A DNA stretch of 64,000 bases from Alistipes sp. (GTDB lineage Bacteria; Bacteroidota; Bacteroidia; Bacteroidales; Rikenellaceae), in the NCBI GenBank assembly GCA_045605785.1, contig JAZUQP010000002.1:38378-102377 (forward strand). The letters run 5' to 3'. This document shows, in pieces, positions 5,829 through 59,981 of this stretch. A program made the position numbers and the translations under genes. Every line of letters starts with the position of its first letter. Within the stretch, counting starts at the first letter, position 1. A model generated the notes under the pieces. The model worked only from the letters and a program-made list of their open reading frames with translations. It made no database searches and had not been told where the DNA came from.

Positions 5829-5912
5829 GGCGTTACCCCGTTACAGCATTACGGGGGGCGTAACGACTGTAACGAGTGTAACGGCTGTAACAAGTGTAAT
5901 GGGTGTAACGGA
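5829..5912. repeat. Left composite array: 3 x 8-bp GTTAC units then 6 x 9-bp GTAAC units
   Basis: GTTAC/ATTAC at 5832, 5840, 5848 (8-bp period); GTAAC/GTAAT at 5860, 5869, 5878, 5887, 5896, 5905 (exact 9-bp period). Confidence 0.95.
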
Positions 5913-5967
5913 AGGACGGCAGAGGAGGGGGTATTACCAAAAAAATAAATAATTTAATCGAAAAGGC

Positions 5968-5998
5968 TTGACAAAGGGCCTTTGATGTATTATATTTG
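5968..5998 (+). promoter_or_regulatory. Promoter for the ATPase gene with an internal palindrome
   Basis: TATATTTG (5991-5998) fits the Bacteroidota -7 consensus TAnnTTTG; TTGACA-N17-TATATT also present; palindrome CAAAGG-G-CCTTTG at 5972-5984. Confidence 0.65.
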
Positions 5999-6246
5999 CA
6001 CCATCAACGGGGCCGAATCATCCGGAAAGTCCCTATCCCCACCTTACGACAGAGAGCACTCCGTATAATGATATAGAGATATGTTATTATATAGGTGTAT
6101 AGCGAGTTATATATAACTATATAAAGTTATTTATAGCTATGCACAGGGCTATCCGCATCGCACGACACGCCACCCTGCAGAGGCGCTTCGGGATGGATTA
6201 CCGCAAAGAGAGAGATTTACATTAACCTAATTAAATTATTTATCTT

Positions 6247-7350
6247 ATGGATTACAAGACCTTTCGTGAGCAGCAACCTGCCAACCGTATCTTCAGTCAA
6301 GTTCTCGAGGAGCACCACACCTGGGAGGAGGAGGTGCGTCGCAGGGAGGATTTCCACACCTACTTGGTCGATATCAAGCAAGAGCTGACCCCCTCGGTTG
6401 CCATCCTCTCGTTGGAGGGGGTGGGGATTGCCACCGAGGGGAACATATCGGCCGTGGTGGGCGAGGCGAAGTCGAAGAAGACCTTTCTCTGCACGGGCCT
6501 CGTGAGCGGCCTGCTCAACCGCCACAACGAGCGCGTGTTGGGCTCCGACCCGCGCCCTGCGACCTCCGTGCTGTGGATTGATACCGAGCAGTCGATGACG
6601 CATGTCCAATTTACGGCTCGGCGTATTCACCTGCTGGCGGGCTACGACATGGAGCAGAACTGCGAGCAGTTCCGCATGTTGGCCCTACGCGAGATTGAGC
6701 CCAAGATGCGTGCCAAGATGCTCTTCGAGGCGATCGAGGAGTGGAAGCCCCGTCTGGTGGTCATCGACGGCATCAGCGACCTGCTCTACAACACGAACGA
6801 CCTGGAGGAGAGCGAGAAGCTCGTTACGATGCTCATGCGCACCTCGTCGCGCCTGAAGAACCACATCCTCGTGGTACTCCACACCAACCCCAACTCCGAC
6901 AAGGCACGCGGCCACATCGGGTCGGCTCTGCAACGCAAGGCGGAGAGCGTAATCTATGTCCGTAAGGCGGGGGATTGTTCGATTGTCGAGCCGCAGTTCT
7001 GCCGCAACGAGCCCTTCGAGCGCTTTGCCTTCCGCATCAACGCCGACGGGTTGCCCGAGAGCTGTCCCGTACCCGAGGAGGCAACGCCCGGATCCGCCTC
7101 CTACGACGATGTGCGTCAGGCGGTTATCTCGCTGGGGCAGGTGTTGGTCAATCGTTCGCTCGTGTTAAGCAAAATTGCCGAGCTGCGCGGCTGTTCGCCC
7201 GCCACAGCTCGTGTGCGCCTGCACCGCGCCCTGCAACGAGGCACGGTGTGCGAATCGGGCGAGGGGCTTATCTCCGTTACATCTGTTACACCCGTTACAC
7301 CTGTTACACCCGTTACACCCGTACACGCCTGTAACGCTGTAACGCCGTAA
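6247..7350 (+). CDS. AAA_25/RecA-DnaB-like ATPase (helicase-like) with a putative C-terminal winged HTH; no primase/toprim domain seen
   Basis: Walker A GEAKSKKT, WIDTEQS, Walker B LVVIDGISDL, VLHTNPNSDKARGHIGSALQRKAE, typical of Bacteroidota mobile-element ATPases; C-terminal LVLSKIAELRGCSPATARVRLHRAL looks HTH-like. Confidence 0.8.
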   Translation: MDYKTFREQQPANRIFSQVLEEHHTWEEEVRRREDFHTYLVDIKQELTPSVAILSLEGVGIATEGNISAVVGEAKSKKTFLCTGLVSGLLNRHNERVLGSDPRPATSVLWIDTEQSMTHVQFTARRIHLLAGYDMEQNCEQFRMLALREIEPKMRAKMLFEAIEEWKPRLVVIDGISDLLYNTNDLEESEKLVTMLMRTSSRLKNHILVVLHTNPNSDKARGHIGSALQRKAESVIYVRKAGDCSIVEPQFCRNEPFERFAFRINADGLPESCPVPEEATPGSASYDDVRQAVISLGQVLVNRSLVLSKIAELRGCSPATARVRLHRALQRGTVCESGEGLISVTSVTPVTPVTPVTPVHACNAVTP

Positions 7351-7351
7351 T
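7273..7351. repeat. Right composite array, inverted relative to the left one and overlapping the ATPase 3' end
   Basis: GTTAC at 7276, 7285, 7294, 7303, 7312 plus degenerate GTAC at 7321 (9-bp period); GTAAC/GTAAT at 7331, 7339, 7347 (8-bp period). Confidence 0.95.
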
Positions 7352-13099: not shown

Positions 13100-13251
13100 A
13101 ACCTGATTACTTCAATTATAAAACAAATATCGGCATTTTTTTTTATTTTGTGCTATCATTGGATAAATTTTATCGGATGAACGCCCCCACTCGGGGTAAT
13201 ATGTGGCAAAAAATCGCTAACTTTGACTCATTGAAAACCGACAGCTGCGCT

Positions 13252-14739
13252 ATGAAGTCAAATCTGAAAAACCTCACATTCGCGGTGGCCATCCTGCTTG
13301 CGACCGCAGGGTGCAGCTCACCCCACACGGAGTATGAGCGAATCGAGCCGAGCAACCGAATCGGAAAGTTGCTCGAACACAACAACCCCATCTCGCCCAC
13401 GGTATTCTGTGCCGACCCCACCGCCGTGGAGTACGAGGGGCGCCTCTACATCTACGGCACCAACGACCACCAACAATACCTCAACGCCCCCGAAAATGGC
13501 TATGAGAAGATCAAATCGCTGGTCTGCTTCTCGACCGACGACATGGTCAATTGGAGCTACCACGGCGTGATCGACACCGAGGAGAAGGCCCCCTGGATTG
13601 TCAATTCGTGGGCACCCTCGATTGTGAGCCGCCGAGAGGAGGATGGCCTCACCCACTTCTACCTCTACTTCTCGAACAGCGGTTGCGGCGTGGGTATCCT
13701 CACCGCCACCCATCCGCTGGGGCCCTGGCGCGATGCGAAGGGGAGCCCGCTGGTCTATCAGGGCATGCCCGAGATTGGCGACTGCCCCCACCCCTTCGAC
13801 CCGGGGGCCTGCATCGACGCAGAGGGGGTAGGCTATGTGGCCTTTGGTGCCGGCACCGCCCGACACGGCACCCCCGAGATGCCGGGCGTGTCGCGCATTG
13901 CACGCCTCGGAAGCGACATGATCAGCTGCGACACCATCATCGAGGTCAAGACCCCCTACATCTTCGAGGCCCACGAGCTCAACTACATCAACGGCACCTA
14001 CCTCTACACCTATAATAACAATTGGCTGCCGCGCAACCCCGCCACCTGGAACTACCCCGACTACGACCTCCCCGCGATATGCAGCATGGCCTACATGAGC
14101 TCCCAAACGCCGATGGATGCCGAGAGCTGGGTCTATCGTGGCGACTACTTCCCCAACCCGGGCGATGTGGGGATGCAGCACAGCAACAACCACACCCACT
14201 TCTTGAAGTACAAGGGGGTGTACTACATCCTCTACCACTCGCTTAACCTGCAAGACAACCTCGGCATACGAGGGGGATTCCGCAGCATGATGGTCGAGCG
14301 CCTGAACTTCGACGAGGAGCGTACCGAAATCCTGCCGACACGCGGCACACACCGCGGTGTGGAGGCCATCACACCCTTCAACCCCTACCGCACGACACGA
14401 GGCACCACCCACTCGCACGCTGCCGACATTGGGTATGCAGAGGAGGAGAGCCCCGAGGGCATCACCGCCTACAGCAAGTGTGCCGGAGCCTGGCTCGCCC
14501 TGAGCAATGTAGCCTTCCCGAAGGGGGCCTCGTCTTTGGTGGCAACCCTCGCAGGTGAGGGGTATGTCGAAGTGCGTGCCGACTCACCGGAGGGCCCCAC
14601 CCTCGCCTACCTGCCCTGCAACGGGGAGCCGAGCCGCGTGCGCGTCCCACTGCGCCACCCGATCCACGACACCCAAAAGCTCTTCTTCCTCTTCTCCGAG
14701 GAGAATATCCGACTTATTGATTGGCGATTTAAGCGGTAA
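13252..14739 (+). CDS. Glycoside hydrolase family 43 lipoprotein with a C-terminal CBM6-like domain
   Basis: ADPTAVEYEGRLYIYGTND, WAPS, FDP, FEA, NNHTHF motifs; lipobox AGC; start at MKSNLK, 26 nt after TAACTTTG (13218-13225). Confidence 0.92.
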   Translation: MKSNLKNLTFAVAILLATAGCSSPHTEYERIEPSNRIGKLLEHNNPISPTVFCADPTAVEYEGRLYIYGTNDHQQYLNAPENGYEKIKSLVCFSTDDMVNWSYHGVIDTEEKAPWIVNSWAPSIVSRREEDGLTHFYLYFSNSGCGVGILTATHPLGPWRDAKGSPLVYQGMPEIGDCPHPFDPGACIDAEGVGYVAFGAGTARHGTPEMPGVSRIARLGSDMISCDTIIEVKTPYIFEAHELNYINGTYLYTYNNNWLPRNPATWNYPDYDLPAICSMAYMSSQTPMDAESWVYRGDYFPNPGDVGMQHSNNHTHFLKYKGVYYILYHSLNLQDNLGIRGGFRSMMVERLNFDEERTEILPTRGTHRGVEAITPFNPYRTTRGTTHSHAADIGYAEEESPEGITAYSKCAGAWLALSNVAFPKGASSLVATLAGEGYVEVRADSPEGPTLAYLPCNGEPSRVRVPLRHPIHDTQKLFFLFSEENIRLIDWRFKR

Positions 14740-59496: not shown

Positions 59497-59840
59497 GGGT
59501 AAGTCTTATACGACCAGCTCCTACAGACTCCCCCAGGTGCGGAAGCAAGCAAGGGTATGTGGTTGTAGCGGTGCGATATAAGTAGCTTACCCTTTTTTAT
59601 TTTTGAGTGATAAGGTGGCATTTGCGGCCGCTAACATAAAATCCAACAATGGGCAGTACCAAAAGTACAGCCCATCGTCGTTTTTACGGCCGAGCGTTGC
59701 AACTACCACCTTCTAACTCAAAAATTATTTGCGAGGATTGACGGCATTTGCGGCCGCTAACAATAAATATCGCGAATGGAACATACGCTTAGTATGCTCC
59801 GTCCGCGATTATTTTTGCCGAGCGTAGTGCCAATTCAAAA
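59497..59840. repeat. Tandem hairpin elements (copies C1 59600-59724, C2 ~59735-59840, and a divergent hairpin at 59497-59592)
   Basis: GGCATTTGCGGCCGCTAACA at 59617 and 59743; C1 termini TTTTTGAG/CTCAAAAA flanked by TTA on both sides. Confidence 0.85.
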
Positions 59841-59981
59841 TTTAGAATTTAGAATTCAAAATTGATTCCTTGACGCAAAGGTGTGGGAGGTATGGGAGTT
59901 GCGGGATATTTGCTCCTTGTCTTCCTAATTTCATAAGGTCAAAGAGAATAATTGTGAATCGTGAATTGTGAATTGTGAATT
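59832..59981. repeat. Two heptamer tandem-repeat tracts in opposite orientations
   Basis: aattcaa aatttag aatttag aattcaa (59832-59863); aattgtg aatcgtg aattgtg aattgtg (59950-59981), abutting glgB promoter TATCTTTG (59989-59996). Confidence 0.8.

Follow-up and report, generated by a model that had tools for sequence, protein, structure and literature searches.

Positions 5829–7351 of a 64-kb window of Alistipes sp. DNA (the window being the whole stretch that was analyzed; coordinates given without further label are positions in it) hold a single ATPase gene that is bracketed on both sides by composite arrays of GTTAC and GTAAC pentamers. This segment is one member of a large Alistipes/Rikenellaceae cassette family with the order array, promoter, gene, array. 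Between the members of this family, the array cores vary together with the predicted recognition helix of the encoded protein. Our favored reading is that the cassette is a reduced module of an initiator-helicase and its iterons, functionally similar to the Rep-ori units of the Staphylococcus aureus pathogenicity islands (SaPIs), and we give this reading a probability of roughly 0.55. The segment comprises the following features.

5832..5852, no strand assigned: outer half of the left array, GTTAC at 5832, GTTAC at 5840 and ATTAC at 5848, in 8-bp steps; within the inverted repeats.
5853..5859, no strand assigned: G-run pivot GGGGGGC between the two halves of the left array.
5860..5909, no strand assigned: inner half of the left array, six (T)GTAAC units in 9-bp steps, at 5860, 5869, 5878, 5887 and 5905, with GTAAT at 5896.
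5938..5998, plus strand: A-rich block and promoter, with TTGACA at 5968–5973, a 17-nt spacer and TATATT at 5991–5996, within TATTATATTTGCA (TAnnTTTG type).
6060..6146, plus strand: AT-rich leader (65–67% A+T) with the 14-bp palindrome AGTTATATATAACT at 6105–6118.
6247..7350, plus strand: coding sequence of 367 amino acids, consisting of N-terminal helices, a RecA-fold AAA_25 ATPase core, a winged helix-turn-helix (HTH) and a disordered, array-encoded tail.
6400..7065, plus strand: ATPase core, residues 52–273, with Walker A GEAKSKKT, DTEQ, Walker B VVIDG and LHTNPNSDKARGH, invariant in the family alignment.
7105..7278, plus strand: winged HTH, residues 287–344, with the predicted recognition helix 318–330 (ATARVRLHRALQR), from the AlphaFold2 structure and its predicted local distance difference test score (pLDDT).
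7276..7325, no strand assigned: inner half of the right array, GTTAC at 7276, 7285, 7294, 7303 and 7312 plus a degenerate GTACA at 7321, in 9-bp steps, inside the 3′ end of the coding sequence.
7331..7351, no strand assigned: outer half of the right array, GTAAC at 7331, GTAAC at 7339 and GTAAT at 7347, in 8-bp steps, with the stop codon TAA (7348–7350) in the last unit.

The composite arrays at the two ends had been described in an earlier note on this DNA, and direct reading confirms them. Allowing at most one mismatch, TGTAACNNNTGTAAC matches nine times in the 64-kb window, always within the two arrays, at a shuffle expectation of 0.09; none of 100 shuffles gets to nine. As also stated in that note, both inner ends read inward are TGTAACGGA. 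One-off variants account for 4 of the 18 array pentamers, and a pattern search of the 1.95-Mb genome yielded no further occurrence of the three-unit array pattern. As inverted repeats, the array arms are 50–52 nt long and 80–81% complementary, with the mismatches located between the cores. The description of the layout as a mirror image stands in part. Within each array, GTTAC units precede GTAAC units and thereby form a dyad, which accounts for part of the two-ended symmetry; the truly mirrored feature is the asymmetry of 3+6 versus 6+3 units. Furthermore, the right array is not intergenic but lies inside the open reading frame (ORF). It constitutes the final 75 nt of ORF 6247–7350, with CACGCC at about 7326–7330 as its center, and encodes a (VTP)n tail, VTSVTPVTPVTPVTPVHACNAVTP, which is disordered according to AlphaFold2. 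In related loci the center position is taken by a G/C-run or a GC-clamped hairpin. The array hairpins (−17.4 and −12.7 kcal/mol, z about −3.2) are imperfect because the 8-bp and 9-bp steps put the halves out of register. Given this register, the differing spacers and the moderate stability of the hairpins, we rejected a pure hairpin or cruciform function as the primary constraint.

A paralog with 64% identity is encoded in the same genome on contig C26 and is bracketed by composite arrays as well, with GGTAAC/GTTACC cores and a polarity opposite to that of the window arrays. It has three arrays on the 3′ side and two on the 5′ side, inside long inverted repeats that include one of 148 nt at 97% identity. 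Close homologs (43–71% identity) exist in 13 of 36 other genomes of the genus, at zero to two copies each and often at contig ends. A large protein collection yielded 2802 homologs at a maximum e-value of 1e-20, the named ones being labeled 'AAA family ATPase [Alistipes sp.]'. Most of the metagenome contigs bearing a homolog measure 1.2–1.7 kb. The arrays interrupt the assembly, which makes these contigs short and leaves the family systematically fragmented and under-assembled in short-read metagenomes.

Among the GTDB species representatives we identified 187 loci. The 80 that were kept are nearly all titled Alistipes or Rikenellaceae (one is a 'Bacteroidetes bacterium') and stem mostly from gut metagenome-assembled genomes of ruminants and other animals. 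We scanned for arrays with a strict definition, requiring an identical exact 5-mer at a phase of 7–11 bp, with at least three per orientation within 60 bp. Composite arrays were detected on both sides of the gene in 32 of the 62 loci with enough DNA, and upstream only in another ten; the left array is not lacking in the homologs. Not one of 282 control windows of 700 bp, taken from those loci, contained a composite array. This detector undercounts, since it misses loci with other periods, and it misses even the left array of our segment because one unit there is ATTAC. All four of the scan-negative loci that were read by eye have arrays of other cores or periods. The second array of the cassettes abuts or overlaps the stop codon. 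Throughout, the cassettes are lone genes among housekeeping and polysaccharide-utilization genes (polysaccharide-utilization locus, PUL, and TonB-receptor genes), and no integrase, transposase or other recombinase gene adjoined the cassette in any locus examined.

With these data a trivial explanation can be judged, namely that the right array is a coding feature, the DNA of a VTP-repeat tail, and the left array an unrelated low-complexity tract. The right array is indeed translated in frame as (VTP)n. However, the closest homologs have no VTP tail, the ORF of the paralog ends at the first in-frame TAA of its array, and the tail itself is predicted to be disordered. Two-sided arrays with unrelated cores in dozens of loci, set against the empty control windows, leave this explanation with practically no probability, and we consider it refuted by the family comparison.

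Some loci show additional elements. At L044:7100–7560, three copies of a unit of about 90 bp (…TACCTACGYCCTCGCTTTTTAGAGGCGTAAGGG…) lie between an upstream GTGCG-type array and the gene; this unit may be a structured RNA or another repeat. A 102-amino acid ORF overlaps the annotated start of the ATPase gene in the same locus. In L089 (MSHJ01000010.1), the CGAAC/GTTCG array modules (~250 bp each side of the gene) are direct, not inverted, repeats; the gene would be lost, and a solo array left, if these repeats recombined. An outer second layer of phased arrays with telomere-like cores (CCCTAA(A)/TTAGGG, TTAAGGGT), in 9–10-bp steps and as inverted pairs, surrounds many cassettes and was found in L011, L014, L020, L021, L126 and L167.

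The upstream and downstream arrays of one locus have a common core, and the cores vary between loci. Among them are GTAAC, xGTAACA, TGTAAT, GTAAT, GTTAAA, GGTAAA, TGTAAAT and GTGAAAA as well as TGTCACA, CGTATCA, TTTATCA, CGAAC, CGTGATTC, GGGACTAT and others. We analyzed this variation in 58 unique cassettes, using a 16-residue helix segment and permutation p values. The distance between motifs correlated with the distance between helix segments (r = 0.186), and did so with the ATPase distance partialled out (0.218, p = 2e-4) and with the rest of the C-terminal domain partialled out (r = 0.123, p = 0.004). In contrast, motif distance was unrelated to the distance between ATPase domains (r = 0.034; partial r = −0.12, p = 0.99). 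At 82–87% identity of the ATPase core, a motif change accompanies the change of one or two helix residues. The helix NRAHARVK is paired with CGTAACA and NRAYARVK with CGTATCA. In the group Y[GA]xAQVK, S or C at position x is paired with GTTAAA, T with GGTAAA, A with TGTAAAT and V with GTGAAAA, and [ST]TA.M[RQ] helices are paired with GTCAC cores. Because the core co-varies with the predicted recognition helix and not with the ATPase domain, the arrays are very probably the protein's own sites. Judged from these sequence comparisons, it is very likely that the protein binds its own arrays; the earlier proposal to this effect is strengthened by a layout that recurs with differing cores tracking the helix. 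The arrays of the window gene and of the C26 paralog differ in core flanks, spacing and polarity, as expected if cross-binding were selected against.

The gene product had been described as an ATPase with an HTH-like tail, which agrees with domain searches and structure prediction. Pfam AAA_25 (PF13481) matches residues 60–214 (2.8e-10; 40.6 bits versus a cutoff of 27), and the C-terminal part has a weak match to Sigma70_r4_2, a sigma-70 region-4-type HTH. Domain-library searches returned these two only, and no nuclease, HUH or recombinase domain; a Rep_3-type domain was likewise not found in the Pfam search. The PHROG matches are phage primase/helicases and UvsX-like proteins. Among the sequences of solved structures in the PDB, a profile search gave no match. 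An AlphaFold2 model from an alignment of 35 sequences (mean pLDDT 86; predicted TM score, pTM, 0.73) contains the C-terminal winged helix, composed of helices 287–296, 303–314 and 318–330 and a beta wing at 334–344, with pLDDT values of 85–96. Foldseek matched the core to RAD51, RadA, KaiC, RepA of plasmid RSF1010 (1g8y), 1cr2 and T7 gp4; the best target-normalized match was RepA of RSF1010 (1g8y, 1nlf), with TM scores of 0.67–0.70.

Invariant in the 35 sequences are K77/K78/T79, D112-T113-E114-Q115, D174, H212-T213-N214 and K219-A220-R221-G222-H223. Naming these residues as motifs of a RecA core (Walker A Lys, catalytic Glu, Walker B Asp, motif H3 His, Arg finger) is by analogy only. The invariance of the Walker A Lys/Thr, DTEQ, the Walker B Asp, HTN and KARGH indicates that the ATPase is under purifying selection. 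The Walker A motif (residues 72–79) has the family-wide invariant form G-[EA]-A-K-S-K-K-T, with Lys at the place of the second Gly of the canonical motif, a form present also in a homolog from a Bacteroides mobilizable element. Profile matches and model together support the assignment of the protein as a RepA/DnaB-type (AAA_25, superfamily 4 (SF4)-type) RecA-fold ATPase with a C-terminal winged HTH, apparently helicase-like.

The promoter upstream of the gene scored 11 of 12 in a promoter scan. Its block is 88.5% identical over 61 nt to the upstream region of the paralog, and the A-rich/promoter block is also present at L087, L112 and L126. The AT-rich leader at 6060–6146 is a candidate unwinding element or a candidate second binding element. 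The gene resides on a 114-kb chromosomal contig; its neighbors are susC/susD, DUF1963, Sel1-like, NPCBM and GH43 genes. As the earlier note had it, no integrase, transposase or primase gene adjoins it at this locus. A defense system was considered and dropped, as there were no PADLOC matches.

Distant homologs (29–40% identity, some across the winged helix too) are 'AAA family ATPase' proteins of Bacteroides, Phocaeicola, Parabacteroides and Prevotella integrative or mobilizable elements, and phage primase-helicases. They adjoin integrase, primase-like and relaxase genes, in line with the previous statement that such ATPases sit in Bacteroidota integrative elements. Close-clade cassettes on plasmids or phages were not found in PLSDB, INPHARED and IMG/VR, which contained only relatives of at most 40% identity. 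In the cfxA element NZ_OY725959.1 (L034), the homolog lies between HTH genes and a toprim gene, with MobC, relaxase and integrase genes nearby. At 13100–13300 of this element, a second AAA_25+HTH gene ends in a TGTCCCA ×3/TGGGACA ×3 array, and after it comes an unannotated ORF whose start resembles Zn-ribbon/DUF6371 primase-like proteins; this array is likely an unrecognized origin-like site. The order in an IMG/VR sequence (L177) is integrase, two ORFs of unknown function, AAA_25-winged helix gene, array, Zn-ribbon/DUF6371 primase-like gene and RusA. The array there begins at the stop codon and reads ACCGTA ×n, GC-clamped hairpin, TACGGT ×6. L169 has a GGCTAC/GTAGCC array around CCCCCCTATATATAGGGGGG. 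To our knowledge, the arrays of these mobile elements have been neither annotated nor described.

The modules of the Bacteroidales elements are true homologs of the cassettes, alike in their AAA_25 and HTH parts and in a composite inverted array at or overlapping the stop codon. They differ in having just the downstream array, with a primase-like (toprim-type) gene after it, and in the integrase, excisionase, RusA or relaxase genes alongside. Judged by gene content and arrays, the Alistipes cassettes look like a version of this element module in which only the helicase and its arrays are left and a second array has been added upstream.

A functional parallel is provided by the SaPIs. Their Reps are superfamily 3 (SF3) or superfamily 6 (SF6) helicases that bind penta- or hexanucleotide iterons through a winged helix at the C terminus; 6–12 of these iterons follow immediately downstream of rep in two opposed sets (PMC9371898). 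The Bacteroidales elements, with their array on the downstream side, have this layout too, on a RecA-fold ATPase in place of an AAA+ one. The cassette resembles this arrangement in three respects: an ATPase with a C-terminal winged helix, here predicted from sequence and by AlphaFold2; opposed iteron sets right after the ORF, here six GTTAC-type and three GTAAC-type units at 7276–7351 that overlap the stop codon; and a specificity, here predicted, that varies between elements and matches the cognate protein. There are differences as well. The SaPI Reps belong to the AAA+ proteins, the cassette protein to the RecA-fold AAA_25 ATPases. In the SaPIs, an AT-rich center lies between the iteron sets, whereas the cassette has a short G-run in the center and its AT-rich tract at 6060–6146 instead. 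In addition, the cassette possesses a second array upstream of its promoter, lacks a primase, an integrase and an inducible island, and is a fixed chromosomal resident.

The same Pfam family as the cassette protein, AAA_25, includes the RepA of RSF1010, its best target-normalized structural match. RSF1010 RepA lacks a tail for DNA binding, and its loading at oriV depends on a separate initiator, RepC, which binds the iterons; in the cassette protein, helicase and site-recognition roles appear to be fused. A gene bracketed by its own binding-site arrays, which for the cassette are predicted sites, is also known from the P1 (incC/incA) and F (oriS/incC) replicons. In these, iterons lie on both sides of rep, the upstream set overlapping the promoter and serving autoregulation and the downstream set acting in control. 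The P1 and F Reps are WH1-WH2 initiators without an ATPase; their iterons are 19–22 bp long and mostly direct, and the replicons are extrachromosomal, with partition and other genes. The cassette, in contrast, has no Rep_3-type domain, 5–7-bp cores in 8–9-bp steps arranged as inverted sets, and a chromosomal location.

We compared the flanks of 99 loci. Several orthologous sites carry cassettes in opposite orientations. In nucleotide alignments of L097 with L109 and of L103 with L105, the flanks align in reverse and the promoter-gene segment forward, with the junctions inside the arrays. The C26 paralog sits in the divergent yicC-serC spacer, which is 2.2 kb long there; 17 other genomes of the genus have yicC next to serC, separated by array-free spacers of 175–615 bp. 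Two further species (L103, L105) have a cassette beside a serC homolog (~62% identity). When the ATPase cores were placed on a maximum-likelihood tree, the cassettes of a given site did not form a clade of their own; the branches with good support require a minimum of four changes for the site XY and of five for the site T, and near-identical proteins were found at different sites. The non-monophyly and these near-identical proteins indicate an exchange of cassettes, or of their genes, within a restricted group of sites.

These comparisons support inversion and gain at the level of the family on an evolutionary scale, where the flips may have occurred by in-place inversion or by re-insertion. 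The segment had initially been proposed to be an invertible or mobile unit and a search for other copies and empty sites suggested. The 64% paralog and its site, empty in 17 genomes, answered that search, and the array breakpoints and gene-less array pairs likewise favor the proposal between species; within species, however, only one orientation was seen. For the window locus, the DUF1963 (YwqG-like) neighbor is present in just 3 of 61 genomes of the genus, in G027 with a different left neighbor. Three contigs with the exact DUF1963 protein end inside the ATPase gene, at a stretch common to the paralog; look-ups of the exact ATPase and YicC proteins returned no record. A circular mini-replicon was rejected, as the homolog-bearing contigs of 1.2–2.4 kb are collinear pieces of long chromosomal contigs and have no permuted ends.

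The opposite orientations at orthologous sites, seen between species and with junctions in the arrays, could also be read as a sign of an inverton, a programmed switch run by a recombinase encoded elsewhere with the arrays as recombination sites. A promoter-bearing segment flanked by inverted repeats would suit such a switch, and the 97% identity of the 148-nt inverted repeat in the paralog flanks suggests ongoing homogenization. Yet the promoter would turn together with the cassette's own gene, which an inversion would therefore leave unswitched, and all contigs of a given species have the same orientation. Multi-unit arrays in 8–9-bp steps are unlike known inverton repeats, the flanking repeats of L089 are direct, and none of the loci examined has an adjoining recombinase gene. 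Taking these points together, we regard an inverton as very improbable.

Arrays occur without a gene, too. Genome-wide there are 14 clusters of at least five GTAAC/GTTAC units: two in the window, five flanking the paralog and seven orphans. All orphans are of the paralog's GGTAAC type (C3:27521; C26:58212 and 69275; C37:11143, 13330, 13553 and 13727), and no orphan copy of the window's own array type was found in the genome. The orphans C26:58212–58271 and 69275–69480 lie 5 kb on either side of the C26 cassette, and C3:27521–27585 is on another contig. Those at 69.3 kb of C26 carry the spacer sequence of about 100 bp of the cassette flanks, like copies of a small repeat module. Four orphan arrays are located in C37:11143–13795. 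One pair of them encloses a 148-bp AT-rich tract, the core of which matches the window leader at 6104–6140, palindrome AGTTATATATAACT included, over 37 nt at 97%; this succession of array, AT-rich tract and array is an origin-like arrangement without a gene, to judge by its sequence. The C37 arrays also bracket a three-gene block of a YajC-like gene, a lipoprotein gene and a 338-amino acid ORF. In G015, a gene-less pair of its cognate CGTGATTC arrays is present on another contig. The spacer of 800 bp between convergent genes at L167 (G015:C21:43500–44350) contains three CGTGATTC/GAATCACG composite arrays, with TTAGGGA/TCCCTAA arrays outside them, and lacks an ATPase gene; this spacer represents a cassette that either has been emptied or is non-autonomous. 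The orphan arrays would fit binding in trans or non-autonomous derivatives.

As an aside, the window also contains AT-rich 7-bp tandem repeats at 59830–59875 and 59940–59980 (AATTCAAAATTTAGAATTTAGAATTCAAAATT; GAATTGTGAATCGTGAATTGTGAATTGTGAATT). They recur at 91–100% identity next to the arrays of C26 and C37 and apparently belong to a repeat that is general to the intergenic regions of this genome.

Dispersed arrays invite a comparison with the repetitive extragenic palindromic (REP) sequences and their doublet form, REPINs; the orphans are the chief argument for a reading along these lines. The REP-associated tyrosine transposases (RAYTs) are HUH/Y1 transposases acting on single hairpins; their genes are single-copy, vertically inherited and flanked by inverted REPs, with further copies of the repeat dispersed. 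By analogy, the array modules would be the spreading units, and the array-flanked ATPase-winged-helix gene would maintain, disperse or tame them and have no present role in replication initiation. In both systems a single gene is flanked by inverted repeats without other mobile genes, and protein and repeat diversify together. Paralog-type arrays at 12 places of the genome, of which the seven orphans are far from the gene and some have the same spacer, and the gene-less pair in G015 agree with spreading units. The window's own array type, on the other hand, has no such copies. The cassette protein is an ATPase with a winged helix and its repeats are multi-unit arrays; without a nuclease, HUH or recombinase domain it has no evident chemistry for dispersal, and its relatives in mobile elements point to a replication module. 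We therefore regard this explanation as fairly unlikely. The RAYT genes, together with the P1 and F replicons, also qualify the earlier claim that a two-ended layout of this kind had not been described. We found no paper on this cassette family, but REP-flanked RAYT genes and iterons on both sides of rep are analogs.

The location of some arrays raises another possibility, that of a domesticated, autoregulated DNA-binding ATPase which acts as a regulator or local chromosome organizer on neighboring genes or topology and for which the helicase ancestry is immaterial. The upstream array lies just 5′ of a conserved promoter, orphan arrays bracket ordinary operons such as the yajC block on C37, cassettes are often located beside PUL or TonB-receptor genes, and many keep the same chromosomal site across species. 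Against this, the distribution is patchy, as the copy numbers in the 13 of 36 genomes illustrate, the neighbors vary, and the orientation flips relative to them. Furthermore, the strictly conserved catalytic residues of the ATPase would be needless for a plain repressor. We consider such a regulator quite unlikely.

We return to the reduced initiator-helicase/iteron module. According to this reading, the winged helix would read the 5–7-bp cores, so that each array would accommodate a row of six to nine protomers, divided into two opposed sets. Self-loading initiator-helicases use this geometry when they assemble at an origin. Autoregulation may come in addition from the upstream array, which lies about 60 bp from the −35 box. 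The cassette would descend from, or be sister to, the helicase/iteron array/primase module of the Bacteroidales integrative elements, with primase, integrase and the rest of the ancestral module lost. As the arrays are inverted repeats, recombination or template switching between them could flip the promoter-gene segment, and a limited number of intergenic sites would have received cassettes as well as gene-less array pairs. We infer the binding itself, the loading of hexamers, the melting or replication of DNA and the route of relocation. A mini-replicon nature is suggested by ancestry only, and from the same ancestry it is conceivable, at somewhat less than even odds, that the protein still fires replication. 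The probability of roughly 0.55 combines our high confidence in array binding with this lower one in replication firing.

Several observations weigh against the reading. The cassette lacks a primase or any other replication gene. The array centers are a short G-rich run rather than AT-rich, and the AT-rich tract lies 150 bp inside, in the leader. The Walker A motif GEAKSKKT is unusual. Foldseek scores RAD51, RadA and KaiC as high as helicases; the designation as a helicase hence derives from the Pfam family and the gene neighborhoods of the relatives and not from the fold alone. The co-variation coefficient of core and helix is modest and was obtained from phylogenetically related sequences. 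With regard to mobility, one orientation was found in all 13 contigs of one species and in the three of this species, and the short gene-bearing metagenome contigs are collinear with the chromosomal arrangement and are not circles.

A more far-reaching version, which we put forward tentatively and regard as rather unlikely, is a recombinase-free selfish unit. Here, the RecA-fold helicase guided by its winged helix and the arrays would suffice for local replication or strand opening, inversion and the seeding of copies. As parts of this same tentative proposal, gene-less array pairs would depend on the protein in trans, and rapid co-evolution of helix and iterons would prevent cross-talk between paralogs within a genome.

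If the reading as a reduced initiator-helicase/iteron module is correct, a widespread gut genus has a minimal module in hundreds of variants, each with one protein that recognizes, and perhaps opens, its own sites. The family would then be a natural series of matched pairs of winged helices and 5–7-bp sites, with single-residue switches readable from alignments, such as NRAH to NRAY with GTAAC to GTATC. It would offer a system for studying the evolution of DNA-recognition codes and possibly orthogonal DNA-binding parts for Bacteroidota. Self-loading initiator helicases such as the SaPI Reps, the SV40 large T antigen and papillomavirus E1 are AAA+ proteins; the cassettes would suggest that this design, to date known from AAA+ helicases, arose among RecA-fold (SF4-like) helicases as well. 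Finally, clinically relevant mobilizable elements of Bacteroides, including a cfxA-carrying one, would possess unannotated origin-like arrays.

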